Positions 12,001 through 45,000 of a stretch of DNA of 64,000 nucleotides are shown here, piece after piece. A program made the position numbers and the translations under genes. The notes below the pieces were generated by a model. That model searched no databases, was not told where the DNA came from, and worked only from the letters and a program-made list of their open reading frames with translations. The first letter of the stretch is position 1; every line of letters starts with the position of its first letter. The stretch spans positions 68,921 through 132,920 of the forward strand of contig JAPLLR010000046.1 in assembly GCA_026387455.1 (NCBI GenBank), in the 5' to 3' direction. This stretch comes from Candidatus Omnitrophota bacterium (GTDB taxonomy: Bacteria > Omnitrophota > Gorgyraeia > Gygaellales > Profunditerraquicolaceae).

Positions 12001-15000
12001 CGCTTGGTTATATTGCGCAGCATATTGAGGCTGGAGATATCAGGCCCGATGTCAGGCTGCGAGTTGCAGAGAGTGATCCTGAGGCCTACGTACCCGATGA
12101 TTTGCGCACTGGTAGTCGACCTATACGCGTGGGCTTCCTGCCCATGAAAGGTGATCCCTGGCAGGTCGGCCACATCTTTGTTATCTTGGAAGCCGTAGCT
12201 AAATTAAAACTGGATAAAGTAGTGGTCATGATTGATAATTCTGATCCTATCCGTAAACCGAACTTAACCTCTTTAACCGTACGGGAAGCCATAAGTAAGG
12301 CCTTGTTCGCGCATCTGGGTTCGTTAGTGCAGTATACAGCTATAACCAAGGAGCACGAAGAGCTTTTTGCCGTCGATGGAGAGACCGCGATTTTCAAGTT
12401 TATAAGCTTAAATAATAAATTGCCTGAGAACACTTCTCTTGAAGTTTATTATATGGTTGGTTCAGATCATCGTCATTGGGAAGTTAAGAAGAAGCATCCG
12501 CAAACCGACGCAGAAATAACTTTACCTGACACCCCGCAGAAACTTATTCTTAATCAGCTTCCTGAGCCGGATGTTATGAAGCGCTGGCCGGCACTTCAGG
12601 GAAATCACTCCGGTCTCTATGGCTATCAGCAAGGCATAAGCCCCACTGTTAATATACTTTTCATAGAGCGCATCGGAGAAGAATTCAAAAAAGATCAAGG
12701 CGGCAAAGAGGTTGAGTTGGAAGCCTTGGTTGAAAGCGTAGGAAAAAATATCGGCCACATCGCCAAGATATTCCAACCTATGGATACATCATCTACCCGT
12801 GTCAGAAAACAGTATCATTACTGGACAGTTCCCTGGGATATATTCCTTTTCGCCAGGGCATTTAAACTTTGGGGATTTGAAGATTCATTTGTTCCTGGAG
12901 AAAAAGGTATTAAATGGTCAGAGCAACAGAAGGCAGTTGCCGAGGGATTATGTGGATTTATTAATTCAAATGATTTTCCTGCAATAGAAGCAAAATTGAA
13001 AGAAGCCTATGGCCCGGCAATGAATATTTTTGATATGTTCTTGATGCAAGCGATAAACCAGTCCGAGATACCGGATAATAAAGAGCGTTTTGAGAAAATA
13101 CGCGGATTAATTTTTGCCAGAGGCGAGGAGTTTGTGGGAGAGGTTGTAGGATCTGCGGATGCGCAGTTAGATGAGGCTCAGAGGGAAGTATCCCCGGACC
13201 TTAGCACCAAAGACGCTTCCCATGAAGAAGGTAGCTCGTTTTGCGCAATTGCTCTTATGCCCGCATTATTGATTGCAGCAGTGGTAATCCTGGGGATACT
13301 GGTGGTTTATTTCTCGTTCAGGCTTCGCGCGATTAAAGACAAATTAGCAAAATTAAATTCAATTTATGCTGCACAAACAAAGGAGGCAGAATGTCTACCT
13401 TACTCGAACTTGGGCAGGGACTCGAAGTCACTCATATCCTCTCCCGTCCCTACGGACTCCTCATCTATGCCAAGTACCCCTGCTGGTACTCAGAGTTCAG
13501 TTTCCTCCTCAGCCCAGACGGCACCATCAGGGGAAAGACTCATGACGGAAACTGGTATGAGATCAGCTCCGAATTCTCCGATATCATCAAGGCCAAGGTC
13601 AATAGCGTCCTTATCTACGAGCGCAACCGGTTCTACGGATAACAGCTGTCAAGGAGACCGTTCTTCAAGCGGCCTTCCGGATGAAAAAGTGGATGCCGCA
13701 ATTGAAGAATTTGGCGGAATGGAAAGTATCTGGAATCTGGGCAAAATCAACGATGCGGATTGGTTATCTGTGCAGGTTATTGGCTTAGGGATGCGCGATG
13801 CCGCACGCAACTTGGACGCCCCCAATTTCAATGCTATTGCTAGGCTCTTAACAATGCGCGGGGTGCATTTTGCACTTGCTCCTGCGAGATGGAAGATTGG
13901 TGCCTGCATAGGATTCCTCAATGACCAGCCCATCATTATTATTCCAAAAGATGTCACTTATCAGGAAGTTGCCCTTGAAATCCAGGCAACAATAGTCCCC
14001 GCATTAACCCACAAAGAAAACCTAAAAATTGACAGTTTGCAAGGTCGCCTTTATGCGCTAAGGGATAGAGATTTAGTAAAGCGCATTGAGCAGGTTAAAG
14101 AAGGCATCTTCGGTACAATCAGAGACCGTAGTTCAGGGAGCGTGGTTTCTGGTTGCTATCTCCAGCCGCAAATTGCCAATAGGGCAGGCACCCGCGCTTT
14201 TATTTATGTTAAAGAGAAAACGCTTTCTTCCATGCGGCTGGTAACGGCCGCAGAACAAAGCCGTCTATCCACAAATAAATCCTATCCGGCTATCATGCCC
14301 GTGGAAAATCTTCCGGAAAGAGAGCCTCGGCCGGAAGAGTTAAATATAATTATTTCTGCCTTTGGCGGAAGTGATGCGCTTTTGGCCAAGGGAATCAATA
14401 TGAATGTAAGGATAAATCCGGCCCTGGAGTCCCCTGCTGAAGTAAGAAATGTCGTATTACATGTTAACCCCCGCATTTTAAGAGCGCCGCCCGAGCAGTT
14501 AAGGGTTATCTTCGAAGGCCACGAATTATTCCATCTGCTTCATCCGCAGGAACCCGAATCAGCAGCCAGAAATTATACTGTCAGTTACCTCCTGAAGAAC
14601 GGTCCTGCGTCACTTCTTAGCCATATCGGATTCTTAAATTGCAATTCATTAGGCATTCAGATTAAACACTCTCAAGAGTGGTTATCTGAGCTTAGGCAGG
14701 CTTTGGGCGATAAGTTTTATCCAGCCGAAATGGTGCCATCAGCCGGCCAGATAGAGGATATTACAGAAAAAGAATTAAATACGCTCATAGATCTTTTTGG
14801 TGGACACCATACAGGAATTACCTTAACTAAAGATAATGTCAAATGCTATTCTGCGCTAGATGTTCCGGCAATAATCGTAGGTGACATTCTCTACATACAT
14901 ACCGATATCATAAGAAGCACACCGGAAACACTGAGGGCATTTGGAGGGCAATTAAATCTTATTTTCAAAGACCATATGTTTTTCTACTTGGCCTTTCCTG

Positions 15001-18000
15001 AAGAAAGTAGGCAAGATGTATGGCTGCGCACCATTAGCGCGATCTTAACCGAAGATCGCTATACCCAGCTGGAAAGTCATATACGTTTTCTATTAGTTAA
15101 CCCTCTAAATCTTGCGCCCCATAAGGAGTGGTTGGACTACTTAAGGGAAGCCTTAGTCAGATATACAAGGCAGGATGTCGAACCACGAGCCTTAACAGAA
15201 TCGCCTTTTAAGCAGTTTCTTTTAGATAAAACCAGAACTAATCTGCGAGAGCGGGTTTCAAAGGGCAACCTTAGTGAGCCCATAATTTTGTTTGAAGGAG
15301 AAAAAGATAATCCGGTTGAAGAGACATTGCGTGATGAGGTGATGTTGGTGAGAATAGGTAGGGCACTTCACCTTGAAGACGCTCTTGTAAACATTCTGCG
15401 CCCGATACTTAATATGTACGAAGGAAAGGCAGAGGTGGTGTTTACTTCCATGCCCAAACACTATGGTGCAACTGAACAGCATGCATTCAGCGCTCTCATG
15501 GAAAGAGTATCCGCGAAACTAAATATGGCGTTTATCAACGAGCAATTTTATGAAACAAGAAACCGCCCTGCTATGGGCACCTTCCCTTCGGCAGATCCTG
15601 ATGTACGCAGGGAGGCATTTATATACACAGATAAAACCGGCCAAAAGAGATGCATAGTTGAATTCGACAATTCCGGAAAGGTGGATATAAATGGAAAGGT
15701 GGTTATACTGGTTGATGATGTGCTTACCAGCGGTACCACCATGCAGGTCTCAAAGGATGTGCTGCGTAATGCCGGCGCAAGAGAGGTTATTCCCATAAGT
15801 TTGTTGAAGGCGCCTGCGTGGCATGCCTTGTGGGAAAAGAATGAAGCTAAGCGCACTATCCGTAAATACGTCTTGAAGCTTGAAGAGATACAGGATTGGA
15901 GAGGGGCAACCATGTCCTTAAAGACAATTCTAGATGAGCTAGAGGTGGAAGATGAAGTTATCTCTAGAGTTCTGGATAACCTAGCAATGAATCATGAAGA
16001 TCGGCGGCAGATTTTAAGCGGGCTGGGCACTCTTCTTTATACGGGTGATTTTCGCTTCAGCGCGAAGTATAAGCCAGTTCCTAGTTTAGCGAAAACAGTT
16101 GAGGTACAAAACCTTGATCCGGGATTGTTTTCATTTATCCATGGCATCCTGGATTTAGGAAGGTATTGCGGAACTAAAGGAGAATGGGCGCTTTTGTTCC
16201 ATACCGTAAAATACGATGAAGCTACAAAAACCTTCTTGCCTGGCAAGGAAGATATACTTACTACCCTGCAAACTATTTTAGAGAGCGATAAATTATTAAA
16301 ACCCATACTTCGTCCCCTTATTGATGTGGTAATAGATTCCAAGAACAAGCTAGAAAAGGAACATGATAAATATATGAGGTTGGCCTTGATCCTGAGTACT
16401 CTGGAAATGACAAATGAGTTAATCAAATATTTTATGGTGTTTCTCGAGGAGTATAATCCAGAGATTCAAGAAGTTGGCATATGGTCGTTAACCGAGCAGA
16501 TTGCAAGACGGTTGGATCAGATAGACGTGGATGAAAATATCAAGAAAGAAATCTTAAGGCGCCTTAGACATCTGGGTGTATGGACCGCTCCGGGTAGGTA
16601 TAGTTTTATTAGGTCACTCTTGCGCCGCCTGAACCTGGGTGTTTATATTAAGGAGGTTAACCGTATACGCAGGGAATACCAGATATACGGCTTATCCGAA
16701 TTTAGGACTTTTGAAGATGCGCAAAGACTGTTGAATAGCGTGACGCGGTTGTGGTGTACTGGCTTTAGAGCACTGCTTACAGAAAGGAAACAGCCGATTC
16801 CTGAAAAAGTAATTGCTATTATTGCTCAATGGATAGCGTGCGGGGGAGCATTTAAGATCCTTAGCTCCGGCTCGCTAGCAGGCCTGATAAGGGATGGTTA
16901 TAATAATATTGTATCGGATATTCGCTTGGAGTTAGCCAGGCAATTAGCCCAAAAGAATATTTCCCCGGATATCGATACCCCTGAAGCTTATATTGAAGAG
17001 CTGATGAGCTTTAGTATGTCCAATAGCGCAGAGAATTATACCATAAATGATGCCAGTGCAGTCGGATTGGAAGATCCTCGCCAGCTGCAGCTGAGATTAC
17101 CCTGCCCGGGTATACCGGTATCAGAAGCGGATAGAGTCCAGGCCATCTTCGAAAAACATGGGCTTAGGCTTCTGGCTAAAGATAGCCCTCAACAGATATT
17201 AGCGCAGAGTCAGAGTCCCATTGTTGTCGCGTTCTTCCTCTCGCGCGAAAAAGAATTTGAGAGCTATGCGGAATCATTGGTATTCCAAGATCTGGTAAAT
17301 GATGAGCTGCAAAAGAAAACCTGGGGTCTGTTTAGGCCGAGAAGATACGATATGCAGATAAGATGGCTTGGCGGCACCGAACAGAAGTATAATGCATATA
17401 TAATCATTGAGAATGGCCAGAACGGCGATAAAAAGAGAGAAATGATTGAGAAAATCGACGGCATAAAAGAAGAATTTATGCAGCATCTGCACGTTTTTTA
17501 CACGGGCGATAAGCCTTGGCTAGAAGAAAGAGACGGAAGCAGGGGTGACGACTACTCTGTATTTAAGTTTATGAGAGATAGGGCTGCCGAAATGGAAGCT
17601 TTTGAATCGCACAGTCCAGACCTAACCGTGAATATCATAGCCGGCATACTACATGTTATTTGCGAAGCGGAAGGATTCGATTTAAAGGCACTGCAGCCTA
17701 GCAGTGTTTTGCCGCAAGGACATCTGAATGACAAATCGCCTTCTGAAGAAGCAGCTACAGAACAAAGATTTGTTCATTACCCCAAAATATTGATAGCTGA
17801 TGATGAGTATCGTAACAGAGAGATGCTGGTTAAGCTTTTAAAGAGAAAGGGTTTTTCTGAATTTGGCACAGCAAGAGATGGGTTTGAGGCCATAGAAATC
17901 TTTCGCAAAGCTAAAGAAGAAGGAAAGCCATATGATATTGCAATTATTGATATCATGATGCCGAAAATGGACGGTATGGACCTGGCCAGACAACTAAGGG

Positions 18001-21000: not shown

Positions 21001-24000
21001 ATATCAATAATCAGGGAAGCCAGTACCTGCCCGAGGAATCCCTCGAGTTCGTCACAGAGATAGAAAATATTTTCAATATTATAGAAGAGCAGGGCAGCTA
21101 TACGATTACTATCGCGGCCAAAGATAACCCTTTGATCGACACCGGCCTTCTTTCGCAACTGGAAGACGGCATACAGCTTTATGTTGAATATTTAAGAAAA
21201 GGCGTTGCTACTACTGCGAATCTCGAGAGAATCAGGGGTATGAAAAATCCGGTGGTTGTTGATTGCGTGGGCGGATGCATGTACCGGACCATGTCCAGGA
21301 TCTTTAAGCATCTCGGCATCGACCATAAAATAAAGTTCCTGCATGCAACTGAAGATTCCTTCTTCCACGGCGTAGGCAAGCTCGATACTAACCCTAAGAC
21401 CGGAAACCGCGAGTTCTATGATCTATCGTGTGACTTAGCGATGACTAAGTTCAACAAGAAGACGCAGCAGGTCATCCTCCCCGTAGTGGAAATGACCGGC
21501 TATAGTGAACTTCTTAAAGACTATCCGGTGGGAACGGTGTTGTTGATGACTGACCCGGATGGGGACAGGTTAGTCACCGCCCAGATAGAATCCGCTAGCC
21601 AAGTCTCTTACTTACAGCGCCAGGGAATAGCATATATTGATATGGGTGGTTCACGGGTATTGGCTGTTTATACGCCAAACCAGTCGTTCCTTATGACAAT
21701 CGCCTATCAAAAGAAGGCGTTGGAAGAGGCCGGGCTATGGAATAAGTTCAACTGGTTTATGATAAAGACCACGCCTTCTTCAAGGGCCTGGCTTGAATGG
21801 GCAAAGAAAAACGGGGTGCCGGTAGTGGAAGTTCCGGTTGGTTTCAAGGAGATCGCCTCGGTATTAAGAAAAGTAGAATACAGCCTAAGAGAGAATCCCG
21901 GCAAAGATGTGGTCATCACCGATATTTACGGCAACGATATTAACTTAGGGAACAATCCCCGTCTACTTTTTGGCGGCGAGGAGTCAGGTGGGGAGATCTT
22001 TGGCCCGGCGGAGTTGATCAAGAGCGTAAACGGAAGATTGATTCTTGCCATGCGGGAAAAATCTGCCGGAGAGGCGATGGTGGTCACTTCGGCTTTGGCC
22101 GCATACGCTCAAAGCCGTGATCAGACTTTATCTCTCTATCTCCAAGAGATCTTTGAGGAGAATCAGATTATTTCACGGTTTGATTACCGTGCGGACGTCA
22201 TATATTTTAATCCTAATGAGAAAGATCCGCAGAAGCTTTTAAGTGAAATAGATGAAGGCTTGAAGATAAGAACCAAGAACGATACCTATTTTTTGAGTAT
22301 CGCTTTAGCTTTAAGAAGCGGATTGATCAATATAGGACAGGCCAGGGCTATTCTCAAAGAGGCGTTCAGCGAGCTGGATTTCACCAACTTAGAGGATATC
22401 CTGTTTGTGGGAGATGGCACATACCTTGTATTTAGTGATAAGTGGGTCGAGATAAGGCCGTCCGGGACAGAGGCAAAGAATAAGGGTTATGCCGGAGGCA
22501 CAAGCCTGATGGACTGCGTCAATTACTCAGAGAGGTTATCCAATTATTCCGGAGAAAGAAACAGTCTGCACGCGCAATTTATAAACGAAGGTTTATATAC
22601 AGAAGTAAAAAGCAGGGCAAATAAGATTTTCCAGGATTTTGCGCAAAAAGACGGTGATCCTCAAGGCTTCCAGCCGCCTGTTGATACGGAATATCTCACT
22701 CAATCCACTTCTGGTATGGATCGCTCTTCAAGAGGCCTTGCGGATGAGGCAGTGGATGCTGCAATTGAAGAGTTTGGCGGCACAAAGAATATCTGGAACC
22801 TGGGCAAGATTGACAATTGGATGTCGGTGCAGGTTATCGGTCTAGGCATCCGCGATGCCGCACGCAATTTAGACGCTACCAACCCTAACGCCATTGAGAT
22901 GCTATTGAGGGCGCGCGGGGTGCATTTTGCCCTTGCGCCTCCGGGATGGAAGATCGGTTCCTGCATCGGTTACCTCAATAATCAGCCCATCATTATTGTT
23001 TCAGAAGACGCTACGTATCAGGAAGTCGCCCACGAAATCCAGGCAGTACTAGTCCCCGCGTTAACACATAAAGAAAACCTAAAGATCGACAGCTTACAAG
23101 GCAGGCTTTATACGCTAAGAGATAGATATTTAATAAAGCGCATTGAGCAGGCCAAGAGAGGTGTCTTCGGAGAGATCAGGGATCGCAGTTCACGCAGCAA
23201 GGAGGGTATATTTCCGGGCTCGCCGATGCGAAGAGTCAAGCTGCTTCCTGCCGCGCAAGTTGAGCAGTTCAAGAAAAGAATTCTTGCTGCTCCGTATCTT
23301 TACTCCAGATTTGAAATAGCAGAACCCAAAGTACAAAGAGAGTCTACATCTACTCCCGTAAGATTCAAATGGAACCTGTTTGAAGAAGAGATAATATGCA
23401 TTGGTCAGCACGATGTAGAATTAATGCAAGAAGTGGCGCAGGCAGCCGAGTTCTTGCGCGCGCATATAGGAGACTTAAAGGAGGATCTCTCCGGCTTACG
23501 CGGTTACTATCAGCTTGATATAGAATTCCCCCACGAATTATACATAGAATTTACCAGCAAGTCAGATGCCGCAGCAAAGTTAGACACGACAGGCAGGTCA
23601 CTTATTGAAATTAATTGGTCGATAGTAAGAGATGATCTGCCTTTCAGGGCCAGAATTGAGCTGCTGGATAAGATTTTCTACTGCGCATATCCGCAGCGCA
23701 ATGTGCATAATCTTGTCGATCAATATTTTATCTCCCATCATGAGCACAGAATCAGTTTTATTGAGACTCTCTCTAAGATCTCCCTTGCTGAGGAGCCGCT
23801 ACGCAACTGGCAATATGCTTCTTCTATTATAGAGAAAAGTAAGGCAGTTTTTGTGCTCCTGCCAGTTAACAATGCCGCGGATAAACTGCCTGCCTGGTTT
23901 AAGAGAATGCATGAAGAGCTGATGAAGATGCCCAAAGATTTCCATTTTGAAGTGATTGTTTGCGATAATGGCTCAACTGATTCTACCCGCAAAGCGGTGT

Positions 24001-27000
24001 ATTCGATAATGGGAAATTACAGCAGGGGAGGCACCCTAAGGGTCACCTATATCTATACCCCCACACCGAATAAGATCGGAGCGGTTAATCTTATGTACAG
24101 AGAGTGCGTAACCAGATGTGCCCAAGAGAGAAGAAGGAATCCCAAATTGTCCGTATATTTGCATTTTGCCGACGACGATGCTTTTATGGCGGAATATCTG
24201 CCGGAGATAGACAGGGATAGATATGGATTAACCCCCGAGGAGGATCAGCTTTTAAAGGACGCCAAGACACAGATAGGTCGGAATATTGCGGTTTTGGAAA
24301 ACCCGGGGCTGGCGTATAAGCTCACCTGGGGTTACTTGGAAACTAAGAACGCGGCTGTAAGAAGGGAACTGGATAGCACAATTCAGTTATCTGGTACAAG
24401 TTTACGGGTAAGGGACGCGCTACTTTCCAAGGGCATACAGTGTGTAGGTACCACGCCCATAGCTCATAAGATAGATTTAAAGCGTACTCCTAAAGGTGTC
24501 TGGCGGTATTTCTTTGAGCATGTAACCAATGTCCGTAAGAGGAACTTCGGAGTTCCGGTTATACAAATTTACGGACAGTCCTATACGGTAAATCTGGATA
24601 ATTTCGTGGTTATCCCTGAAACTCTTGATTACGAAGACTGTTTTATTTCCGCGCATTTCTATCCGTATCTCGCTACAAATCCCGTTGCCTTGCATTATCA
24701 TTCCGAGCCGGCAACATGGAAGGTATTTTCAAGAAGGTTTATGAGGGATTTAATACACAGGAGCCATCTCGAAGAATACTTTAAAGGGACTAATCCCGTA
24801 TTAGAGAATAAATGTACAAGGTTTACGGCAATAAGGGAGTCTAGCCACTCTGAAATTACTAGGGTGATCAGGTCGACTGCAAAATGGCATTCTTCTTTAC
24901 GCATCCTTAATAGGGCCAACAAATTGTTAAAAGACATCCTTGTGTTTTTATACAGAAGAAAATGGATTCCTAAAGAGTTGAGGGATACGCGTAAGCTTTT
25001 CAGAGGCACAAACCTTCCGAACGACGTATTGCTTTTGCACCCTAAGGAGGAAGTCTTCGGGATAGTCACCAGAGACGGCGTGGTTTGGCCGGACAGGCAT
25101 TGCTTGTGGGAGGCAATTATTCTCGCAGGGCTGGATACCCGCGTCCAGGGAGAGATTTCATTCTCGGAAATCAAGGAGGCAATGGAAAGGGAATTACATC
25201 TTTCTGATAGGAATCAAATAAGAGAATTAGTCATAACGCTTGAGAAGATTTGGGACAAGGCGGGTAAAAACAAAAATGAAAGCATCCGCCTTCTTGAATT
25301 TGCTAGCCTCCTGGGTTCGGGTCTCGTAAAGATGGAAGGCTTCAAGATTATGGGTGATTATTTGTTGAATCGCAATTTGTTCTTACTTTATAACGGGGTT
25401 GTAAACAGGCAAGACTGGAGATTCTCTCTTGTTTGCCTGCTGAGGCTTCTTGATTTTATTCGTTCAGCAAACAACATCCAGATTAATGAGCTCTGCGGCG
25501 TCATCGTGAAGTCAAAGAAGAGTTGCCCTAGCATCATGACTATAGAAATTATGGGGCGTATCATGGAGTTAAGGGATACCTTCGCAATCGGGGAGAAAAG
25601 GTACTCTATAAAGAAAAAGATGGGCGGCGGTTTTGGTGTCTGGCGCGTTGCCGAAGAAGGCGCGTCTAATGAATATATAATGCGTATGGTTTTGCCTCAG
25701 GAACACGAGGATCTAATGCAGATGTACAGGCGTTATAAAGAGAACTTTATCTGTCCGCAAGCGTATGACCCAATATTTTCTCTGGAGGTGCTTCCTTTCT
25801 TGAACGCTACGCCGTTTAGTAGTTTCTCGGAAGAGTGGCACCGTAAGAAGACCTGGGTAGGCATCGCTATGCAATTAACGGATATCGTAGGGAAGATGCA
25901 TAAAGATGGCTTGATTCATGGAGATTTGCGCAGGCCCAACGCTTTAGTCTTCGGAGGAAGCTATCAGGAAAGAAGGATTATTTTGCTGAATACCGGCTTA
26001 ACCGAATGGAAGGATTATTTATCACCCGAAGCGGATATATTCGGCATAGGATGTATGCTTTACTACGCTTTTACAAATCTTGACCCGGCTTACTCTGAAT
26101 CCTATACCCCGATTATTACGATCCCGGCAAGGTTGAATCATATTATTTGTAAGGCGTTAGGCAAGAATTCCAATGAAAAATATTCCAGCATTACCGATCT
26201 GGGTGATGATCTGCGACGGTATTATGATACTACCGACCAGCAGGAAAAGGATAGCGCAGAACAGACAATTGCAGGCGCAAGGCGTGATTTATCCGTAGAT
26301 CTGAATATTCGTTGGCCAGGCGGGCATTTTGATATATCCCTGGATAACTCAGAAAAGATAAAAAGTTTCACCAGGGAAGATCTGGCGAAACTGATTCGCT
26401 ATCAGGATAGTAGTTCTGAGTGGGCGTATGTGCGCTTGAGCATACTCCTTTTAAATCAGTTTTTACAGCTTAACCCCGATGCGCACCATATCCTTATTGA
26501 TATTGCCAGGCAGCAAAATATAGCACTTCATCCTCAGGTTACAAAAGTTATTTTGGATAAGATTCGCGAAAGGCAGTCTACACTAAAGTTAGAGGGTGCT
26601 GATTATTCATTCCAAGATACCCTTGCGCCAAGGGTATTCAGGGTTAGGGATGCGCAAGGTACGTCTTATATCCTTAAGATATTGGATGAGCAGGAAGTAA
26701 GATTTACTAATATGGGCATCGAGAATTATTTGCTAATTTACGATAAAATTCTCGGAATCGCCACAATGAGGATATTGGGTGAAAGCCTGCAGCGATATTT
26801 TGCCAGGCCGATTAGCCTAGAAGAGATCAAGGAAAGAATAAGGAATTGTATTGAAGTAAGCAGGAAGGTAGATCAAATCAACTCCGGTAGGAACATGGAG
26901 ACAGGGGGGATAATTCATAGAGATGTGTTCCCTAATAATATAATGCTGGAGGCAGATAAACCGCGCCTTATAGACTTTGGGCTTGCTGAGGAGATAACAG

Positions 27001-30000
27001 ATGAAACAAGGCATGCTGATATAATGGCCCTGGGTGGGATGTTCTTTCAGATATTCGGTTCCCTAAGAAGATGGATGCCTCTTGCTTATAAGCTGAATTG
27101 CCCCACAGGGGGTCCGTCCTCTAGCGAGCTCCTGAGAACTCACCTTCCGTACATGCCCGTATATTTGCAGGAGGCGGTAGAAAAAGCATTTACAAGGAAA
27201 TTTACTACTGCTGAAGACGTCGCATTGTGTTTGGAGTCAGCATTGAAAGAGTTAGAGGGGAACACTGGGATAATCAATGATTATTTGGGGATGGATAGCC
27301 CCGGAAGCTTAGTCAGGAGCTTCTTAGGCATAAGCGAAGGAAGTGTGAGTAGAAGGGGTGTGCCCCGCACAAGAGATCATTCTAAGCCGCGCGATGGCTT
27401 CACCAGCGATGATGTCGTAGAAGAGGCCATGGAAATAATCAGTTCTAGAAGGATCCGGACCTTTGAAACTATCGGATTGGACAGCCCGCTGGTAAACGAG
27501 GTATTAAGTTACTATACATTGACCGCGCAAATTGAGAAAGCAGCCAGATTAAGACAACTTGCAAAGGCAGGCCGTATTTGCGCCGGGCCTATGCGCACCG
27601 CCTATGGAGCAAACCTTCCGGGATGCATATTTATCGCTACCAATGACAATCCTAACTCCGCTGCAACCTTAGTCCACGAAACCAATAACGGGAATCATCA
27701 GGAAAACCTCAATGCTGAAAAAGAGTTTATGCTTTATCGCCTTTCTCAGGCTGATTTATATTCCGCCATTCAAGATTTAATCGCACAGCAAGTTTCAGCT
27801 GGTATAGTGCATGATTTCTCCAAGACCGCTTCTTATGACCGGATGGTTAGAGGCATATATAGAGTCCAGGTGAATCCAGCCAGGGCCATAGCCAAGAGGC
27901 CAGAATTGAACCAGAAAGCGTGTTTCTTGTGCCGGGAGAATATGCCTGCGGAAGAAATAGGTATAGAGGTGGATAGGGATTGGAAGATTTATAGCAATCC
28001 CAGGCCTTATGAGAAGAACCACTTTGTATTAGTTAAGAAAGAAAGAGGAAGTTATCATCCCTATCAGGAAATTTCTAAATTATCCGATATCGCCACTGCG
28101 TTAGAAACTATTTATAGATTAGGCATAGTACATAACAGAAGAGATTATAGCCTTATTTTTAACAGTCCCCATGCCGGAGCCAGCTCAGAACATTTCCACT
28201 TCCAAGGATTTGAATATCGCCTACCTATAACAGAGCTTAATGTCGAATATCTAAGAACAGATTCCACACTCAGGCTAGGCAGAGTTTTTGACCCAACTTA
28301 TCCTGCTTCTTGTTATGTGATTGAAGGGCAGAACAAGCATGATGTGGCAAATCATCTCTGGAGGTTAATAAAGTTAATTTACCAATTTAAGTTCGGTTAT
28401 AATCTGCTTTTTACGGTTGATAAAGATTCAGATATGTTGCGGGTTTTTGTTATCTTGAGGAAGGCGGAGAGATCCTCGATCTCTACGACAGGGGCATTGT
28501 CCAATGCTACTGCTGATATTTGCGTGGTTTCTGGCATGGCCATAGTTCATGAAGACAAGCAGGCAGAGAATATAACCGAGCAGGATTTTAGGGAAGAGAT
28601 CGTAGAGACTGTGGCCTACTCTAAAGAAATAGAGCGACTTTGGTTGAGATCTTCTTCTAACACCGGCATTTCCTTGCATGCTTTCGTCTTACCTTTCAGC
28701 GTTGAGCTAACTGCGCTCGTTTTATCCGCCATTCTGATCTATTTTGTCATTCGCTATTTAAGGCAGCAGATCACTAGCAGCGGAGTTTTTATTTTTGTTA
28801 AAGAGAAAGTGCTTTCAATTTCCGTGGCTGGCTGCCGAGCGCAAGCGAAGGCGTCCCTGAAGAGCGATAGCGTTGCGAGCGAAAACGAGCAAAGGGATGG
28901 GGATCAAGCCGCCGCAGCGGCCGCTTCAAAACAGCTCGCTTTCCAGAACAATCCAGACGTGGATGAGCTAAGGCCGTGTCTTTCATTTACCTGGCAGCAC
29001 TATTTTGGCAATATCTGTAACGGTATACAATTGCCGGATGCGGTCATAAAAGGAGAGTGCGATAAGAAGATGATCCGGGAAGTGCTGGAAGATACTATTT
29101 CATCTGCCAACAGCGGAATAGAGAAGATTAAAATACTTTTAGGAGATGAAGTTTCAGTCTGTCTTGATTCAAATAAGTCGCCATATTGTATCTGGTTAGG
29201 AGATGAGGGAAATTGCGGGCGCCACGGCAAGGAGAATGTTGATCCTGAAACGTGGTTTTGCTTAAAATTAAGCTCTTTCAGCAGCTTTGAATTGGAAATG
29301 GTGGAGAGCATATTTACCCTCATAAAGAAGCACGCAGAGGCGTTTCTGGGGCAGGGAGAAAAGATTGAGGGATTGCAGGTCTTAGACACATTTATAAAAG
29401 CGCTGATCAAGCATTATCGTGACATAGCCGAACGCCTGGGTTCCAAAGGGCCAGGTACAGATTATTTATCTCCGGATGACGCCTCAACCCGAAGCGGTAA
29501 TCCGCTTTCTGCTTTAGCTAGGATCAGGTTGGCGTACTACAGGCTTATTTTAAGATCCCGATATGATTCTTTTGATCAGATAGAGGATATTGACAGCTTT
29601 ATAAAAGATAATATTATGCCTGGGCTTAAGAGGGCTGTCGGGGATGGTAATGCCCAGCTTTTAAAGAGCTATGTGGATTCCGGGCATATCCGCGCCGGGC
29701 CAAGAAAGCTTTTTGATAAGCTCCAGATTCATGCCTTCAACCACAACGGTTGGATCATCTTTGATCCTTCCCTCCTCGATAATGAGAAACAGCTTATTAA
29801 AGTTCTGGCCCATGAAATAGGCGCTGTTTTCGGTCTGGATCATGCAACAAACAACATTATAGGTAAGATTGTAGCCCAGGAAGCGCTTACCCCGGAAGAG
29901 CAAAAAGTCCTCAAACAAGTCTCCGTGAGAATTAGTGGGATTATGAGAGAGCGTAGATGCGGAAATTCCGTTGATCCGGCCGCAGATAATGATTCCGGAA

Positions 30001-33000: not shown

Positions 33001-36000
33001 GTGGCCCTCCCAGATTGTTTCAGGAGATGGAAAGTTTAATCAAATCTCAGACTCGTTTTGATGTTTCAATAGACGCTTTTAATTTTATCGATGTTAATGA
33101 AAAGATCTGGATAGTCGTCAAGCCCGGCCTTGCCCCTTTGCGCCTGAAGCAGGTTATTGCTCACGAAATTGGCGCGATATTCGGCGTACCCCACCTTTAT
33201 AATTTTAAAGTACTTGAACAGATAGCTGTTGGCAGACAAGGCAGCCAAACTCAGTTTTGGTCTACTCTTGAGGCCATAATAGTCCTCAATTATTACCGCC
33301 TTAAGCCCGGCGAGATAATTATCCCTGTAGATAATTGCGAGTATCGGCTTATTATGCTGCCCTCTAAAAAAGCGCGCGCGATTATTCAGGCGCTTAATAA
33401 CGGATATGATCCGGAAGAAGTATTAAGGGAAATGAATGAATGTGATCGGTCGCTGCGGAATCAAACAGGAAATGGACTATCTTCCGTGGCTGGTTGCCGA
33501 GCCCCGAAAGGGGAGAAGGCGTCCCTTGCGAGCGAAAGCGAGCAAAGGGATGGGGACATTGTAGATTCATCTTGCCCCGTTGCAAAGGGAACAAAAGAGA
33601 TTCTTCCACCTTCCGTGGCTGGTGGGGAAGTTTCTCTTCTTTGCAACGGGGTTTTAGATAAGCCTGCCGCAGCGGCCGCCACTTTAAAGATTCCCAGTCC
33701 GCGTGGCTATATCCCCGACTTTGAGGAGAGGTTCATCTCGGTGATCAATAACGTTTGCAAACCGGCCGAAGCAGATATTTCCAATATTATTTCAACAGAG
33801 CAGATTGATTGGGTGGCGATTATGTCTTTGATCAGGCATAATAATCTGGTGCAGTATGAGTTTGGCCCGGATACCATTGTAGTCCACGCCTTAAATATAA
33901 AAGATGGCCAAGGGGGAGAACTCTTCGGTTTACCGCTTATCCCGGGAAGCTATCATTTTAAAGATCTCCTTCCCGCGGTGTCTTATGTTTCTGCATTAGA
34001 TAATAAGCTGCACATATTCATTACCCGCGCATTCTACGAAGATTACCTGGAGATTTCGCATATGCTGGTGGCCGACGCGCATCCTTCATACGCCCATAGA
34101 AATCTGCAGACTCTGCGCTGGGCAGAGCTTATTGACCATGAGGCCTTTGAGAATTCTCGTCGGTCGCTAGAGATACTTGCAGAAGAGCGGCATAGCCAGG
34201 CGGCACAGCGTGCCTATAACTTTGCTCTAAAGGGTAAATTGAGCCCGTATCATAAATGGGTGATTGATACCCTCGCCACCACTTCGGAAGGATGCCGTCA
34301 TCTGGAGATGATCCTGCAGGAAAGGCGGCCTGGATCCGAAGAGTCAGTGCAAAGAAAATATGAAAAGTATTTTGTCAGATACGTTAAAAACGCCATTTCC
34401 CGCAGGAAATTCTCTACTGAAACTCAAATAATGGCGCATCATCTTTTCCGTGTTTATCATCACGGAGACTGGCAGGCATTCTGTTCTTTATGCGAAGCTT
34501 GTGGTCTGGATGTTATTGAATTAAATGACAGGATAGAAAAGGTAGAGAAAGAATATGTCCTTAAGGAGATCTCGGGTTTTAGTCCGAGCAGGATTATCAC
34601 TAATAGCGGAGAGACTGATGTTGAAATAGATGAAGCTAAGGCTATCGTTAGGAAGATGCCCAAGTCTAAATATTTCAATTTTATCTGGAAGGTGGTGCAA
34701 AAGGATAGACTTGGCAAAAGCTATTTAGACATGCTTGGCGATAGACTGCGAGAAAATTATGAAACGGAGATTTTCTCTCAAGAGAAATTTATGCCTGCGG
34801 TTAGACATCTATTCGCGTTATATCAAAGGTATGGTAGTCAAGCCGGTTTGGTTGTTTCTAGTGAAAGCGAGACAGTATGCAATATTGTCTCGGACTATTT
34901 GGAGCAGTTGAATCTATTGAACAGTTATGTCAAAGCGCGGGATCGCCTTGGAGGGTTAATTGCTGAATTTACCATAATCGGTGGCGTCATCTACCAGGAA
35001 AAGATCATACCCGTTACCGAGTGTCTCGTAGAGTTATCTGAGGGCAAAGGTTATTTCAGGGGATTGCAGGATGCCTCTCTTGAACAAAAAAGCGTGATCG
35101 GCAGAAATATCCTTAAGAAATGTTTGAGCGTAATGGTAGAGTCAGCCAGGCGTGGCCTGATTATTAGCGATGGTAAGTTCACTAATTTCGGGATTATGGC
35201 TAATGGGGAGATTGTTTTATTTGACCTTGGGCCGGGCACATTTTTATCAACGGATGATCCTGAGATTGTTTTGAGTTTACTCCAGTTTGACGGCGTTAAC
35301 GGCATGAATATGTCCAGGCTGCTTAATTTGGCAAAGCTGGAAAGTAATGAGGGAGTCGTATCCACCATAAAAGATATAAAGGCGGTGGAAAGATTGGGAG
35401 AAGAATTATCCCGTGTCTGGCTGGATCTTGTTTCCGCAAGAGAAGTCAATAGCGGTGAAACACCGGAATGGGATTGGAAGAATGACGGGATAGAATTTAT
35501 GGGAAGATTGTCTCGGGCTATCGCCAGGACTCCCGAACAAAAAGCCGCTTCAGCGCAGGCGTTTAGAAGGATAACCTTTATTCCGACGGAGATGGCGATG
35601 GAGCGGATTCTGCGCGTGATTATGCAAGAGTGCGGAATTGCAGGAAGGGCGGTTTCTCGCCAGCTCTACCTGTCAGGTATAAATAAGATGATGCTAGTGT
35701 TGGGTGTTGGCATTATGCTTCTTGTTTTTGCTTATCCGGTATTGTTTGTTGCGTTAGGTCCGTTTTGCATGATCAAAAATGACGATCAATTATCGCAACC
35801 CCTTGAGCCGCAAGCGTCCCGTAAGGCAGGAAGCGTCCCCTTGTTCTCGATTGATCCGCCCGCGTCTAATCGCCTTGCTAAGATTGTCCTTGGCTATCTG
35901 GCTGCTTTCCTCGGGCTTGGTGCGTTAAGCGCACGTTCCGCCGAACCTTATCAGGATGGCCTGCCGTATATCCGCTACTTCCAGAACAATGCTCTGGTGA

Positions 36001-39000
36001 CGAATACATTCAATGGTTTTACCCGCAGTTATCAGGCCGGCGTTCCGGAAGCACATAGAACCCTTGTAGGCGAATACGGTACCTCTTCCTATGATCTTTC
36101 AATATTAGGAAGGATCCAGCTATACAATAACAACACTAATATCCTTGATACCTTTGTGAAATATTTTTCCCAGACAAATGATGTCAACAACCCTGTTTTC
36201 TACTGTGGGAATAATTACACAAACGAGGTCGGGGTGAATATCAAGGGGCTTCCCTTTAATGTCATTAGGTTGCTAGGTAGAGAAATCCCCAACTGGTGGA
36301 ATAATTGGGATTGGAATGTTGATATCGGCGCATCAGCCTGTTTGATCAATTATGCCCTTGATGCCTACAGGCAGAATGGGGACAGCCGTTATCTTAATTT
36401 TGCCATAGCTCAGGCAGATGTATTGCTTAAACTGCAGGATTCAGACGGCGGTTTTAGGTTTGCGCCGATAGGAGTCTCACACGCTGAAGGGGACAGCTTC
36501 TTCTGGAATCTTAAGGCCTTTGAGAAGAATGCCCGTATTTTAAGCGCTTTAGAGAATCTGTATGCGGTAAGTGGTCAGACAAGGTTTGATACGGCTGTAA
36601 CAAGCCTTAAGTCATGGCTTGCCTGGATGTACAATAAGGACGAACATCTATTTCACACCTCAGCGCAATTTGATGGAAGCAGCTGGGTCAGGTCTACTCT
36701 GGGAGCTACAAACGAATATTTTGCCACAGACGTCACTGCATTTGCGCCTATAGAGTGGATGTATAGCGATGCGTATTTTGGCGTAACGCAGGAAGCGCGT
36801 GATACCGAGATCGCGGCTATGTTTGAAGCAACCCGGATAAGAACAGCCTACACCAACTCCGCAGGCATGCCTTTATTCTATAAGTTTTCTGAAAGCCAGA
36901 CCGGAGATTATGGTTCCAGCGAATGGAGTTCGCAGATGGCGCTTGCCTATCTTAGGACAGCCGAGCTTTATTTGGGCCATGACCAGCAAAAATACATTTA
37001 TTATCTTAGCCGCTGGCGCCTGCTTGTTTTGAGCCTGCGGAATAACTTTTTTAAGGTCTGCACGCTTGATAGTTCGTCAAAGGTATCGCCCTATGGCTCA
37101 GATACAGATGGTGGTACCGCAGGATGGGTGCCTACGGGAACCGGATATTATACCGAGGATTATGAGGCCTCCCTTGCCAGCACGTATTATGTCTTTGCAT
37201 TGACCAGATTTGAACCTCTCCAAACCGATGGCGGGAGCGCTGATGCTATGGTTTCTCCTGTGATATCCAAGATAGAAGTTATCTCGGCTAACTTAAATAT
37301 TCGGATAACCATTCGGGATCCTGCAGGCGTATCAGGCTACAATATTTATTACAAGAATTCTTTATTTGATCCTACATGGATACGCTGTGCAGACAATCAT
37401 CCTGCTTCGGGAACAGGTGTGACCCAGTGGATAGATGATGGCACGGGTACAGGAGGGGTCCATCCGAGCCAGGTAAAGACCAGATTCTATATGGTAGAAG
37501 CAATAGATGATCTTTCTATCCAGCAGCCTGCATTAAAAGCTCAAGGGTTATCTTCGGGCTTATTCAATATCACTTCATCTCCCGCAGCTCTTTCGAGTAT
37601 GAAATCTGTATTACCAGCCATAACAACTACTAATGCGGCGGCAAATAAGAAGACAGTGCCGGCGGCCAAAAAATTATTCCTCAATGCGACCGATGCGATC
37701 AAGAAAGGCGGTACGCTGCTGCTTATCATTGGCGCCGTGGCCTTCGCCGCATTCGCGCATCCGGCATCAGTATTTGCTCTGGGAGCTATTTGTTCGATAA
37801 CCGGTGTCGCAGACAAGAAAGAGTTTGTTGTCGCTTCTGACAGGAGATTTGAATTTATTGGGGCGGATATTGAACAGGGTAAGTTTATTATCCCGGACCA
37901 AGCAAGCTCTAAGATCCTGCCGGTGATCAGTCTACTGGTGAACGGCTTTGAATATAGGGTCGGAAACGGCTACTATGTCGTCGTGACTCTAGCTAACGGT
38001 AAGAAGATCTACTGGGGAGGCCAGCATAATCTGTCACACTCATTCTTCTTCGAGCATTACCGCGATAATGCAAAAGATATCATTGATGCGGAAAAACCGT
38101 GGTGGCACGTGGATGCGCACCGCGATACCGGTTATTACGATGTGGAGATCGTGGGAAAAAAGGAAAATGTTGATTGGCAGAAGGAAGTTGGCGTAGGTCT
38201 GGGCGTATCGGAAACAGACTATCTCGGCCGCATGATCGATGAAGGCATAGTCAGGGAATTTGTCATAGCGCAATCATTGGGCGATATAAAGAATCTCGCC
38301 GCTAAAGCTCAGGAAGGCGGCATACTGGATTTAGATATTGATGTGGCAGCCGGGCCAACTCAAGCGGAATTTGTGATACTTGGGAATTTCCAGGATATGC
38401 GCCCGTATCTTATCCAGCTTGCCAGAAAAAGCGAAGTCTGCTTCTTTATTAACAGTTCGGAGCTAAGCCGCGAGTATCTTGGCTCCCCGTTTTATATAGA
38501 CCCGCATCTTTCGATTGCTTTAAATGGTTTGTTAATAGAAGATTTAGCGCGAGGCGCCGCCGAAGCCGATAAAAATAACAACAAGCCCGTGCGTACCTCT
38601 AATATGAGTGCTTTTATTGTTTCGCCTTTGTTCATATCCGGAGTTTTTGTTTTGCTTATTGTCGGATATTCTGCCTGGTATTACCGGGAGGCGATCAGTA
38701 GATTTTTTATATGCTTATTAAGAAAGGGCTTTCCGCAGGAAGAAGTTCAAAAGTCAGGCAAGATACTATCAAAAACAAAGAGGTTGGCGCGGGTTCTTCC
38801 TAAGCCGTGGAAAGGTATTGAGATTAAGGAGGCCCAGCCTCTAAAGGAAGTCAACAAGCGCGTTTGCGCCATTGGCGATGTGCACGCGGATATCGAGGCG
38901 CTGCAAGAACATGTTGATGGCCTGCGTTTTGGCGAGAAAGCAGAGGAGATATTAGTGGTGTGCGGGGATATGGTGGATAAGGGTGGGAAATCTTTAGAAA

Positions 39001-42000: not shown

Positions 42001-45000
42001 TGTACGGAGATTATCTATTGGAAAATAACTTTCTTTCCAGGTTCCCCGAAGAAAACAGATTTCCGATATTTCTAAACACCGCTCCCAGCTTAAAGCTTGG
42101 CGAGAATAAACCCTTTACCTCTACGGATTTAAGGTTGTTGCGCTTGATTCTTGAGGAGATGGGTAAGGGTTACACCGCCTTAAGCGTGATAAAGGCCTGG
42201 CCGACAAAGCGTCTGGAGCAGATAAACAGGATGTATCCTCTTTGGGTCAACTCAAAGGCCACTTTCAATGCCTATGCTCCTTATGAACTTCCGTATCTGG
42301 TGAATACGTTGAAAGAAAAGAAAACGCTGGATATTGCGTTACGCGAGGCAAAGGAAATATTACACGATGAAGAAGCAACCCCTATTATAGAAGAACTCTT
42401 AGGGTTATTTGATGGATTTGTAGATATGCCGTTGCTTCGGGTTGAAGACCTGCCTTTTGATTCTATACCCGGATGTTTTATTGAGAAGATGGAAGATACT
42501 TTGGATATCATTGATAACAAGGCCGGGCATGCCATCAAGGCTTCTGGTCAGATGAAAGCGTCCGAGATATATCCGGAATACGCCAAAGAATTTATCTTCA
42601 TGCATCAGGCGGTACTGAATATTGCCACTGAATACATAAAGGAATCGGGTAAGGAGCTCGGGCCTCCGGAAGATTTTGCCATTGCTGAAAATAGGGTGGG
42701 CGACATCTGGAATATTGAAGGGGGCAGGAATAAGGTAATCGCCATACTCAGTAGCAAAGGCTACACCTTAGAGCAAATAGATAACTTTCTTGATTCGCTA
42801 TGCCGGCATGAGAATTCTCCAGAAGAGCTCGCCGGCCTACAGATGCAGCTAGCGGGATTCCGCTTAAATAGACTTAAAGAGCAGCGCAAATCTGCTTTGG
42901 CAAGAGGCAATGTCAGGAAGATTGGCGATGTAGAAATTATTTTTGATGACGGCCGTGATGAGCAGCCTTTTACCGAGGTAGAGAATGTGGTAGATGTGGA
43001 TATAACCATCCGTATCTGGTTAAGCAGGCCAATAGAAGATCCACTTACTCAGTTAGTGATGAATTTGTGGTACAGCTCCAGCGATAGAAAAGATGAATGG
43101 TCTGAAGGCCTGATGTATTTTGTGCAGCAGGATGAGCTTGATCCGTCTTCGTATGTCTTTAAAGCGCATACTCCGGAATACTTCTCCGGGATGTTTACCT
43201 ATAGGCTCTCTATTGACGGGGGAAAAGCCTACGAATATTTAAATAAGGGGTACGGGGATGACCGCACAATTAGAAATAATACTTCCGGCAGGACCCATAG
43301 ATTTAAGCATATCAATCAGCATCATCAGGCCAATTTTCGTTTCCAGTATTTTTCTATAGAGTTGGCACAGAAGATCATGGAAGAAGTAAGAGTATATTTT
43401 CTGGCCAAGGGTTACAGGCTATATTATCCGATTGGCGACGGTTCGCAGGGTGTGGTTTTCAAGGCCGAAGAGGCGAAGACCCGTAAAATAAGGGCGGTAA
43501 AAGTTTCTCGGCCAAAGGATGAATGTACGTCGGCTTACTGGGGGGTGATAGAAAATGAATTTGAGCTATGGAAGAAGATAGGTCTTTCTGAAGGGGCCTT
43601 TCCGGCTCTGACCCGGGTATTTGACGCGGGTTTGATCAGCCGCAGCGATCTGAGTGTAGGGGATTCGGGATATAGATATTTCTATCAGGTCATGGAGTGG
43701 AGGCACGGCATGGACCTGAGGAAAAGCATTGCCAACGGGTTCTTTGAGACTGAGGATGATATAGAGCTGTTGATCACCAATCTGATCGTTTTTCTTAATC
43801 AGGTGATCATTATGAACCGCGCGGGAGTGACGCATAATGAGCTAGATGATAAAAACATAATGATCAATGAAAATCTTAATTTTATTGCCTGCGATCTTGA
43901 TGGGTTATCCATGAATAACGAAGGAGGCAAAAGAAATGATTTTATCGCATTAAGGGATGTTTTGCGTAAGGTCTTGGAACAGGCAATGCAGGATACCCCT
44001 TATGAAGGGAATATCCAGCCTTTTCTAAATGAATCTTCATCGGGGACCATCTCTCAAGGCATACTTGCAGAATTCTTAAGCAACCTTAAATCCATTAAAG
44101 AAGAAATCGCGCAAAAATATCCTAAAGATGATGAGTTCGCGTTTGTGCTGGATTTCTGCATTGGATTCCTGGAGAAAACAAACGAAATCCTGCGGATATG
44201 CGGCCACGGAGGTAATTATTTCCTTGGGCCGCAGTTCATAAATATGGGCGTTTTACCGGCCTTATGCCAAATAGGTGAAAACCAGCCATATAAGCAGCGC
44301 ATCGAAGCCTTTGTTCTAAAATGGCTTAGTAAATGCAGTGACACGGATGAAATAATCTATTTTCATCTAGGCTTGGAGAGGCTCATAGAAGATTTAAGCG
44401 CGGATTTTGTCTTGGATAACAGAAGCAAGCTGATGCTCGGGTTCATGAAAAGGTTAACCGGGAACATCAGGCAAATAATTATGATACATCAAAGGGATGA
44501 TCTGGAAGCGAAGATTGATGAGTCTGATATTGAGCTTGCTCTGATCGGGGATGATAAGCTGTGCGAAACATTCATTAACGGAAGTATTTGCTCTATCCTG
44601 CATAGCGAGTGTTTTAATACCCCCTATTGTAAATTGGTAAGGGATTTTCTTAATCGCGACACAAAGGACCTGAAGTCCAGGAATAGTCTTGAGCTGCTTG
44701 TTAAGATGCTAGAGAGATTGCTTGCGGAGATTAGGGAAACAGACTCCGTAATGCAAAGGACTGGCCCGCAGGGTCCCCAGATGATGGCTATTGCGGCTTT
44801 GCCGTTGGTGGTTATTCCGGTATCGGCCTATATGGCCATTGGCATTATCGGTATCGTTATATTGGGAGCACTAATATACTTATCTCTAAGGTCCGGGCCA
44901 AAAGACAATACAGAGGAGATCCTGAATATTTATCTGGATGATATGCTAAATAGGCTTAGGGCGCAGGGGAAAGATGCTGTGCGCGAGCTTATGATGAAAT

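Follow-up and report, generated by a model that had tools for sequence, protein, structure and literature searches.

By sequence, a pseudokinase is a kinase-like domain that lacks at least one of three residues, namely the Lys of VAIK, the Asp of HRD and the Asp of DFG (PMC13519141). Several families of bacterial pseudokinases are already documented, among them ActPs1-3, DLHK, GLW, CP1, DYD and EssB/YukC (PMC12599244). Very long open reading frames (ORFs; at least 7,000 amino acids (aa) in the cited work) of the class named 'multi-enzyme metabolic cluster' have been reported from Omnitrophota (10.64898/2026.06.07.730766; 10.1101/2023.11.21.568195). The giant genes of this phylum are already known, as are pseudokinases in bacteria. 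The DNA analyzed here, referred to as the window, is a stretch of 64,000 nucleotides (nt) from a Candidatus Omnitrophota bacterium (contig JAPLLR010000046.1), which is read through by a single stop-free frame. In this frame, nt 25590-27263 encodes two adjacent kinase-fold domains, K1 and then K2. An earlier note on this DNA had described them as a pseudokinase followed by a canonical Ser/Thr kinase and had considered such pairs typical of eukaryotic proteins, such as JAK and RNase L, and not of bacterial ones. We regard it as reasonably probable that K1 and K2 are an anciently duplicated Hanks-type pair in an Omnitrophota cassette, with K2 as an atypical kinase and K1 as its non-catalytic partner, and that the pair acts in cis. 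All features of the window given below lie on the plus strand. Amino acid i corresponds to nt 3i to 3i+2, so that nt 25590-27250 is equivalent to aa 8530-9082.

The bacterial Ser/Thr kinases (STKs) PknB, Stk1, StkP and PknI gave the best sequence matches of K1 and K2 and were among the top fold matches. They have in common with the pair the bilobal fold of eukaryotic-type protein kinases (ePK). The αC Glu, the catalytic-loop Asn, the DxxxxG motif of αF and subdomain XI of these enzymes align to K1 and K2. In contrast to the PknB-type kinases, the K1-K2 pair has no PASTA or other sensor domains, and it is a tandem duplication with helical pre-domains, fused to a glycosyltransferase family 2 (GT2)-like domain and placed in a giant ORF. 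About 25 residues, which comprise the activation loop, the P+1 loop and the APE motif, are deleted in both domains. K2 also differs by the lack of the Gly-rich loop and of the Lys of HRDxK, and K1 by the lack of the β3 Lys and of the DFG Asp, which is the metal-binding residue.

Tandem kinase-fold domains K1 and K2

A fragment of 1600 aa that contains both domains was matched by the Pfam Pkinase model (PF00069) with 41.7 bits, compared with a gathering cut-off of 31.7. The single domains scored below this cut-off, K1 with 19 bits (plus a RIO1 match in the N-lobe) and K2 with 29.6 bits. The hhalign comparison with ten Stk1/PknB-type kinase domains gave a probability of 99.7% over about 200 columns for K1 (E 1.7e-25) as well as for K2 (E 8.1e-26), and the alignment to the bacterial Ser/Thr kinases spanned subdomains I to XI in both cases. 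In a profile search of PDB sequences, Stk1/PknB of S. aureus was the top match of each domain (E 6e-17 and 5e-17), and StkP and PknB were among the next matches of both. JAK kinase domains appeared lower, at about 1e-11, for K2. A phmmer search of PDB sequences placed M. tuberculosis PknB first, with IIHRDVFPNNIML…LIDFGLAEE aligned to IIHRDVKPANIMI…VMDFGIARA. The same PknB match also aligned the C-lobe of K1 to PknB subdomains IX-XI. The kinase assignment of the earlier note, for which hits to Pkinase or to the protein-kinase-like (PKL) fold were decisive, was borne out by this check with hidden Markov models and profiles (hhalign E of about 1e-25 for each domain). With the 554-aa region as query, a word-indexed search for homologues yielded four weak matches to generic kinases and nothing else. 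When the module alignment was used in a word-indexed search, only ordinary bacterial Ser/Thr kinases and no new family members were found, and this supports the kinase homology.

The fold was modelled with AlphaFold2 (AF2). The model of the module consisting of the pre-domain, K1, linker and K2 had a mean predicted local distance difference test score (pLDDT) of 76.5 and a predicted TM-score (pTM) of 0.72. The order β1-β5/αC/αE/β7-β8/αF/αH-αI was the same in both halves of this model. For K1 alone, a pLDDT of 79.9 and a pTM of 0.77 were obtained. In the Foldseek search against PDB, the pair model matched Stk1, PknB, PknS, PknI and MPS1 with target TM-scores (TMt) of 0.5-0.6, and the K1-only model matched human MPS1, PknI, PknB, GAK and BRAF with query TM-scores (TMq) of 0.57-0.73. 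Almost all of the PDB matches listed for the models were protein kinases. As predicted by the models, K1 and K2 both have the bilobal kinase fold, in which the N-lobe comprises a β-sheet and αC and the C-lobe is helical.

K1 (nt 25590-26235, aa 8530-8745) was delimited by motifs, Pfam, profiles, AF2 and Foldseek. It is directly preceded by helical pre-domain 1 (nt 25416-25589), which is conserved in the homologues and consists of three helices in the AF2 model (H2-17, H20-33 and H39-51). The block-mean pLDDT of this pre-domain was mostly 81-93, and the K2 pre-domain is its homologue. The motifs quoted in the earlier note were found in frame +3 where it had placed them, and its description of domain 1 as a pseudokinase stood. 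K1 has a Gly-rich loop, GGGFGVW (nt 25623-25643), and the catalytic loop HGDLRRPN (nt 25917-25940; Asp8641 and Asn8646). The β3 position is occupied by Arg8561 in YIMRMV (nt 25683-25685), and NTG stands in place of DFG (nt 25989-25997); the αF Asp is Asp8678. By the three-motif definition, K1 is a pseudokinase as judged from its sequence, with two of the three residues missing (Lys to Arg and Asp to Asn).

The homologues showed that the catalytic positions of K1 are not maintained. In the six lineages that cover the β3 position in the MAFFT alignment, it reads R/R/L/T/M/S, without a single Lys. The window and the relatives L001 and L002 have HGDLRRPN as catalytic loop; P0008 has HGDIIHIN, P0009 YGDIIHLN and P0006 YGYIARCN (these relatives are described in the next section). 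The Asp of this loop is kept in the window and replaced by Tyr in P0006. The DFG position reads NTG, NSG, NAG or NPG in the clade of the window and DSG or DAG in the distant clade. The GGGFGVW loop was found in the window only, and the homologues lack it. Of the five canonical catalytic positions, only the catalytic-loop Asn is invariant in K1. Between the DFG-equivalent and the αF Asp there are 12 residues (ADIFGIG), and a remnant SPE is retained. Compared by description, the degraded motifs and the short activation loop of K1 resemble EssB/YukC among the bacterial pseudokinases (PMC12599244). The same review differs from the present case in that it contains no occurrence of tandem pairs, glycosyltransferase fusions or Omnitrophota.

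K1 runs on into a long helix, and a linker and helical pre-domain 2 follow before K2 (nt 26236-26594; AF2 helices H259-291 and H309-385, and alignment). K2 itself extends over nt 26595-27263 (aa 8865-9087), as delimited by motifs, Pfam, phmmer, profiles and alignment. It contains the β3 Lys8892 in YILKIL (nt 26676-26678), the αC Glu8898, the catalytic loop HRDVFPNN (nt 26916-26939; Asp8974 and Asn8979), and LIDFGLAEE with the DFG motif at nt 26973-26981 (Asp8991). The αF Asp is Asp9006. None of the three defining residues is missing, and on its sequence K2 is not a pseudokinase by the three-motif definition. Residues K8892, E8898, D8974, N8979 and D8991-F8992 are invariant in seven lineages that have 17-37% identity. 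The invariant columns amount to 11 of 226 query positions, and all five catalytic residues are among them (hypergeometric p = 9.8e-8). This pattern indicates that K2 keeps its predicted catalytic core under strong constraint. Since the five residues are invariant in K2 and the same positions have decayed in the paralogous K1, this is the pattern expected under selection for catalysis or for Mg-ATP binding.

The earlier note went too far in calling the second domain canonical: HRD, DFG and the β3 Lys are kept, and the Gly-rich loop, the catalytic-loop Lys, the activation loop, the P+1 loop and APE are absent. Between DFG and the αF Asp, K2 has only 12 residues (ADIMALG), with no remnant of APE, and the hhalign gap of about 25 residues in K1 and K2 falls exactly at the activation loop, P+1 loop and APE. 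The prediction of phosphorylation sites in the activation loop, which had been proposed as a follow-up, is moot because K2 has no such loop. K2 is similar in this respect to the minimal kinases of the Bud32/RIO type, which also lack the activation loop, and its best NCBIfam matches were Bud32 models with about 50 bits. This analogy suggests that K2 may work in an ATPase or switch-like mode. The assignment of K2 as a Bud32/KEOPS kinase itself was rejected, as its scores of 50.5 and 49.8 bits fell short of the respective cut-offs of 174 and 125, and no Kae1 or KEOPS context was present. K1 and K2 also differ from Bud32 in keeping the ePK C-lobe region that aligns to PknB subdomains IX-XI.

The two domains proved to be related to each other. 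The hhalign comparison of K1 with K2 gave 99.9% probability and an E-value of 4.5e-33, and the Smith-Waterman score lay at z=6.5 above shuffled sequences. In the BLASTP comparison of the window with its relative P0006, a second high-scoring segment pair (E 7e-14) placed K1 of the window against K2 of P0006. That the duplicated unit takes in the helical pre-domain was seen from the internal repeat of P0006. The closest relative of each domain is the other one of the pair, which points to an old internal duplication within the lineage. On the sequence comparisons, their ancestry is that of bacterial Hanks-type (eukaryote-like) kinases.

The view that pairs of this kind belong to eukaryotes and not to bacteria did not hold. 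By sequence, K1 and K2 are nearest to bacterial kinases, they were duplicated within the lineage, and bacterial pseudokinases are documented (PMC12599244). Other bacterial proteins with tandem kinase and pseudokinase domains were found in the same homologue search, for example P0088, which contains a canonical STK and an HGN pseudokinase and falls in one cluster with MCK4782747.1 from a Desulfobacteraceae metagenome-assembled genome (MAG). P0011 and P0043 are further two-domain examples from this search. It also brought up P0010 from a Logan assembly, an unrelated giant protein of 6203 aa with about nine tandem repeats, each of which appears by eye to be kinase-like with an HND-type catalytic loop.

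The GT2-like–K1–K2 cassette and its relatives

K1 and K2 are preceded by a GT2-like glycosyltransferase domain of the GT-A type (nt 23805-25020), which forms the first part of the cassette. It was matched by Pfam Glycos_transf_2 with 26.1 bits and contains the motif DDD at aa 8057-8059. When 1.84 billion representative proteins were searched exhaustively with HMMER, two matches had E<1e-30 and seven had E<1e-10. One of the relatives, P0005, is a mesopelagic fragment from TARA Oceans with 34% identity that covers the C-lobe of K1 together with the linker and K2. An N-terminal transmembrane (TM) helix followed by the GT2-like domain, K1 and K2 makes up both P0006 (1224 aa) and P0155 (1444 aa), which fall in one cluster. 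The BLASTP alignment of P0006 with aa 7801-9117 of the window was co-linear over the GT2-like domain, K1 and K2 (aa 7935-9023, E 4e-73). P0155 is encoded on a contig of 6.3 kb with a LexA-like neighbour. In P0008 (3817 aa) the K1-K2 pair lies within a larger protein. P0009 (3978 aa) also carries the pair, and it belongs to a 90%-identity cluster shared with NQT07309.1, a protein from a Candidatus Omnitrophota MAG.

A scan of 185,579 species, with one genome for each, yielded 24 loci. Three of them were real relatives, and all three are contigs of Candidatus Omnitrophota MAGs. L001 has 34% identity (E 2e-109), and its ORF has a GT2 domain ahead of the pair. L002 (JAFGHG010000054.1) has 30% identity (E 3e-91), and L003 is the contig that carries NQT07309.1. 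The relatives beyond these three contigs are proteins from metagenomes or read assemblies. A scan of metagenome contigs revealed nothing closer than generic kinases. Every relative of the cassette with a named organism is from a Candidatus Omnitrophota MAG.

The GT2-like domain precedes the pair in six lineages, which are the window, L001, L002, P0006/P0155, P0008 and P0009. Its DxD motif is DDD (DAD in P0008), and EVIVC-N, YEDC[FY]L and R[FY]MRD are also common to the homologues. The downstream neighbours differ: DUF4922 was found in the window, a TrmB-like winged helix-turn-helix domain in P0155, a cytidylyltransferase in P0008, and a histidine-kinase ATPase in P0009. These comparisons define a conserved GT2-like–K1–K2 cassette, which is predicted to occur both as a stand-alone membrane protein of 1.2-1.4 kaa and inside giant ORFs.

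No hydrophobic 19-mer above a Kyte-Doolittle value of 1.8 was found in aa 6788-9564, the stretch that holds the cassette and a PGM/PMM region. As this stretch has no hydrophobic segment and contains PGM/PMM and GT2, whose substrates are cytoplasmic, a cytoplasmic location is the simplest reading. The cassette would thus lie in the cytoplasm within a membrane-threaded giant ORF.

A pair of EF-hand-like motifs was found between the GT2-like domain and K1 (nt 25131-25313, aa 8377-8437), with a weak match to Pfam EF-hand_7 (12 bits, E 0.28). This insert is confined to the clade of the window, and the orthologous loop in L001 reads D-T-D-F-D-N-T-L-S-L-K-E. The calcium-type pattern D-x-D-x-D-N…E in L001 hints at a possible Ca2+ input to the cassette.

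Some further observations concern the surroundings of the cassette. The cassette is interrupted in P0008 and P0009, where the GT2-like domain is separated from K1 by a STAND/NACHT-like NTPase and HEAT repeats; upstream there is a class II fructose-bisphosphatase (FBPase). The L002 contig of 16.75 kb is one open frame of 5582 codons (3-16748) that runs off both ends and appears to be another giant-gene fragment. Apart from the GT2-like–K1–K2 cassette, it carries CofD-like and nucleoside-hydrolase-like regions. In the window, DUF4922 (54.8 bits; nt 27858-28208, aa 9286-9402) lies about 200 aa downstream of K2 and is not conserved in the homologues of the cassette.

Possible function of the pair

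In the predicted architecture, each kinase domain follows a small helical pre-domain, and the pair would make up the C-terminal two-thirds of the three-part cassette. Under the favoured reading of K2 as an atypical kinase, this domain would still bind Mg-ATP and would transfer or hydrolyse the γ-phosphate. It may be either a constitutive atypical phosphotransferase or ATPase, or a nucleotide switch. Because the activation loop is missing, K2 would probably not be switchable by loop phosphorylation and would not provide the canonical docking of a peptide substrate. K1, as the non-catalytic partner, may position K2 or gate it allosterically. The target of this output would lie in cis, in the cassette itself or in adjacent domains of the predicted polypeptide; control of the fused glycosyltransferase is the most plausible form, and its product may be the target instead. 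A more specific version is that the cassette is a self-contained Omnitrophota module, a free membrane protein that was repeatedly captured into giant ORFs, in which the K1-gated, loop-less K2 phosphorylates the glycosyltransferase or its glycan product. We put this version forward tentatively, as a possibility with the balance against it.

Several points weigh against an enzymatic K2 partnered by K1. The β1-β2 loop of K2 has no Gly at all; it reads LAPRVF and is 4 residues shorter than in the STK profile. The catalytic loop is HRDxF and not HRDxK, and the position of the Lys reads F/F/A/D/D/F/F across the lineages. In more distant homologues the motifs of K2 drift to YRD/QND and DFE. The glycine-rich loop and the catalytic-loop Lys normally contact the ATP phosphates, and K2 could for this reason be a nucleotide-binding switch and not an enzyme. 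The conservation analysis covers seven lineages only, the AF2 pair model was built from an alignment of only five rows, and the functional tie of the pair to the GT2-like domain is drawn solely from their conserved adjacency.

The losses in K2, namely those of the Gly-rich loop, the catalytic-loop Lys and the activation/P+1 segment, together with the drift of HRD and DFG to QND and DFE, are also consistent with both domains being non-catalytic. The pair would then be a structural or regulatory scaffold like the EssB/YukC-type pseudokinases, with K2 as a nucleotide-binding conformational switch. Bacterial pseudokinases with exactly such degradations (degraded G-loops and attenuated activation loops) are described in the review PMC12599244. 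What speaks against the scaffold is that the five catalytic residues of K2 are invariant in the seven lineages, with p about 1e-7, while the same positions of K1 decay freely, and we regard this explanation as doubtful. Another alternative is that K2 phosphorylates a glycan, a lipid-linked sugar or a small molecule, which would be the product or substrate of the GT2-like domain (compare WaaP, KdkA, POMK and FAM20B), and that K1 serves as a substrate-binding or dimerisation partner. The small-molecule kinases of the kinase-like superfamily have HxDxxxxN without the Lys and no peptide-docking activation segment. K2 likewise has an HxDxxxxN loop without the Lys and lacks a peptide-docking activation segment, and in six lineages the pair stands next to the GT2-like domain. 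Weak Pfam matches to APH (23.6 bits) and Kdo/WaaP (11.6-21 bits) point in the same direction, but they span the catalytic loop only. The best sequence and fold matches were protein kinases and not APH, choline kinase or WaaP, and the C-lobe helices of the ePK type (αF Asp, αH-αI) are retained in K1 as well as in K2 and align to PknB subdomains IX-XI. A glycan or small-molecule kinase is therefore quite unlikely in our opinion.

The order of a pseudokinase followed by a kinase recalls the eukaryotic modules of the JAK/RNase L type, and we considered whether the pair could be such a module, acquired or convergent, that is regulated via activation-loop phosphorylation. With JAK JH2-JH1 and the plant tandem kinases (WTK1/Yr15) it shares the presence of a pseudokinase and a kinase-like domain in one polypeptide and an implied regulatory partnership. 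TYK2 JH2-JH1 (4oli) was found at rank 18 in the Foldseek search, and JAK domains were among the PDB profile matches of K2. However, Stk1, PknB and StkP ranked above JAK for both domains, and 4oli fitted the pair model with a root-mean-square deviation (rmsd) of 24.8 Å and a TM-score of 0.24-0.27. No other kinase is as close to K1 or K2 as the two are to each other, no specific homology to JAK or to the plant tandem kinases was found, and K1-K2 arose by duplication within a bacterial lineage and has no loop to phosphorylate. The Pfam search of the flanks of the pair revealed no FERM, SH2, ankyrin or KEN (Ribonuc_2-5A) domains. A JAK-type JH2-JH1 module was rejected on the ranking of the bacterial STKs, the geometry, the lack of FERM/SH2 and the missing activation loop, and an RNase L/Ire1-type kinase-KEN module was rejected since DUF4922 lies downstream of K2 and Pfam gave no Ribonuc_2-5A. 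A eukaryotic or viral origin was likewise rejected because every relative with a named organism is from Omnitrophota. We consider a eukaryote-type module very unlikely. The idea that chance motifs in non-coding or mis-assembled DNA gave the appearance of kinases could find support in the weak single-domain Pfam scores (19 bits for K1 and 29.6 bits for K2), yet it is hardly credible in view of the 64 kb without a stop, the homologues of 20-36% identity with the same domain order on independent contigs and the confident AF2 models.

The giant open reading frame and significance

The six-frame stop count showed that the window is one stop-free frame in frame +3 (nt 3-63998, 21,332 codons). The other five frames contain 723-1740 stops each, compared with none in frame +3. 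Since the ORF is open at both ends of the window, the predicted protein has at least 21,332 aa. On the evidence of the stop count, the Pfam domains and the hydropathy scan, the frame is part of a giant multi-enzyme ORF. The Pfam search over the whole frame revealed phosphoribosyltransferase, response-regulator receiver, HATPase_c, PGM/PMM I-III, GT2 and DUF4922 domains, and in addition starch-synthase GT5, Metallophos, glucosamine-6-P isomerase-like, PAS and several Pkinase matches. In the hydropathy scan, 38 strongly hydrophobic 19-mers were scattered along the predicted protein. With at least 64 kb free of stops, many hydrophobic segments and mixed enzyme domains (GT5, PGM/PMM, response-regulator, HATPase_c), the ORF resembles the giant proteins known from Omnitrophota, and the relatives of the cassette in GTDB genomes are all from Omnitrophota MAGs. 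By its length, predicted TM segments and mixed enzymes, it can be placed among the giant multi-enzyme proteins of this phylum. It differs from the described ones in that protein kinases, pseudokinases and the cassette have no mention in the main texts of 10.1101/2023.11.21.568195 and 10.64898/2026.06.07.730766.

Apart from K1 and K2, the earlier note had reported four more kinase-like domains in the same ORF. Three of them could be confirmed. K3 (nt 43389-44100) contains GDGSQGVV, AVKV, HNE..N and DLD (Pfam Pkinase 32.8 bits, hhalign 93.8%), and K4 (nt 55923-56580) contains GGGYHGWV, AIKI, HGE..N and DLD (36.9 bits, 96.3%). K3 and K4 are paralogues (phmmer 84 bits). In both, the G-loop and the β3 Lys are intact, and HNE or HGE stands for HRD and DLD for DFG. 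Judged by their motifs, K3 and K4 add to this ORF a second type of degenerate kinase domain that differs from the first. K5 (nt 60030-60990) contains HRDLTPNN and DFA (29.0 bits, 94.0%), and its apparent β3 position reads AVLV, without Lys. The fourth candidate, at nt ~35150, was not substantiated: in nt 34950-35700 (aa ~11650-11900) there was no Pfam match, and hhalign gave E 0.016 over 42 columns, compared with 0.6 for the controls. A stretch D-G-K-F-T-N … D-L-G in this region aligned to the kinase catalytic loop and DFG.

The PPP phosphatase reported at about nt 38850 was recovered as a PPP/ApaH-like metallophosphoesterase. Its motif core GDVHA, GDMVDKG and GNHE lies at nt 38865-39090 (aa 12955-13030), and Pfam Metallophos gave 45 bits. 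The domain list is compatible with the suggestion that the predicted giant protein may have a phospho-signalling network of its own. Among other features of the ORF, we observed a complete Glu/Leu/Phe/Val dehydrogenase (nt 40035-41550, aa 13345-13849; dimerisation domain 74 bits and catalytic domain 194 bits) and a weak match to Sigma-70 region 4 (Sigma70_r4, nt 58278-58430, aa 19426-19476; 21.8 bits against a cut-off of 24.1). The GC skew was above zero in all 4-kb bins of the window.

The cassette, the loop-less twin kinases and their dual occurrence, free and in giant ORFs, have no mention in the main texts of 10.1101/2023.11.21.568195, 10.64898/2026.06.07.730766 and PMC12599244. A bacterial family of tandem pseudokinase and kinase domains that probably goes back to an internal duplication and has lost its activation loops would extend the catalogue of bacterial pseudokinases and would mean that a JAK-like domain logic has arisen independently in bacteria. 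The retention of the catalytic residues in K2 and their decay in K1 offer a natural comparison of which residues a minimal kinase core may need. The stand-alone cassette of 1.2-1.4 kaa would be a unit that can be expressed and assayed, and through it one may learn how the enzyme domains of these functionally opaque giants are regulated. If the reading of the cassette as a self-contained module is true, the giant proteins of Omnitrophota would have a built-in, cis-acting phospho-regulation of their enzyme domains.

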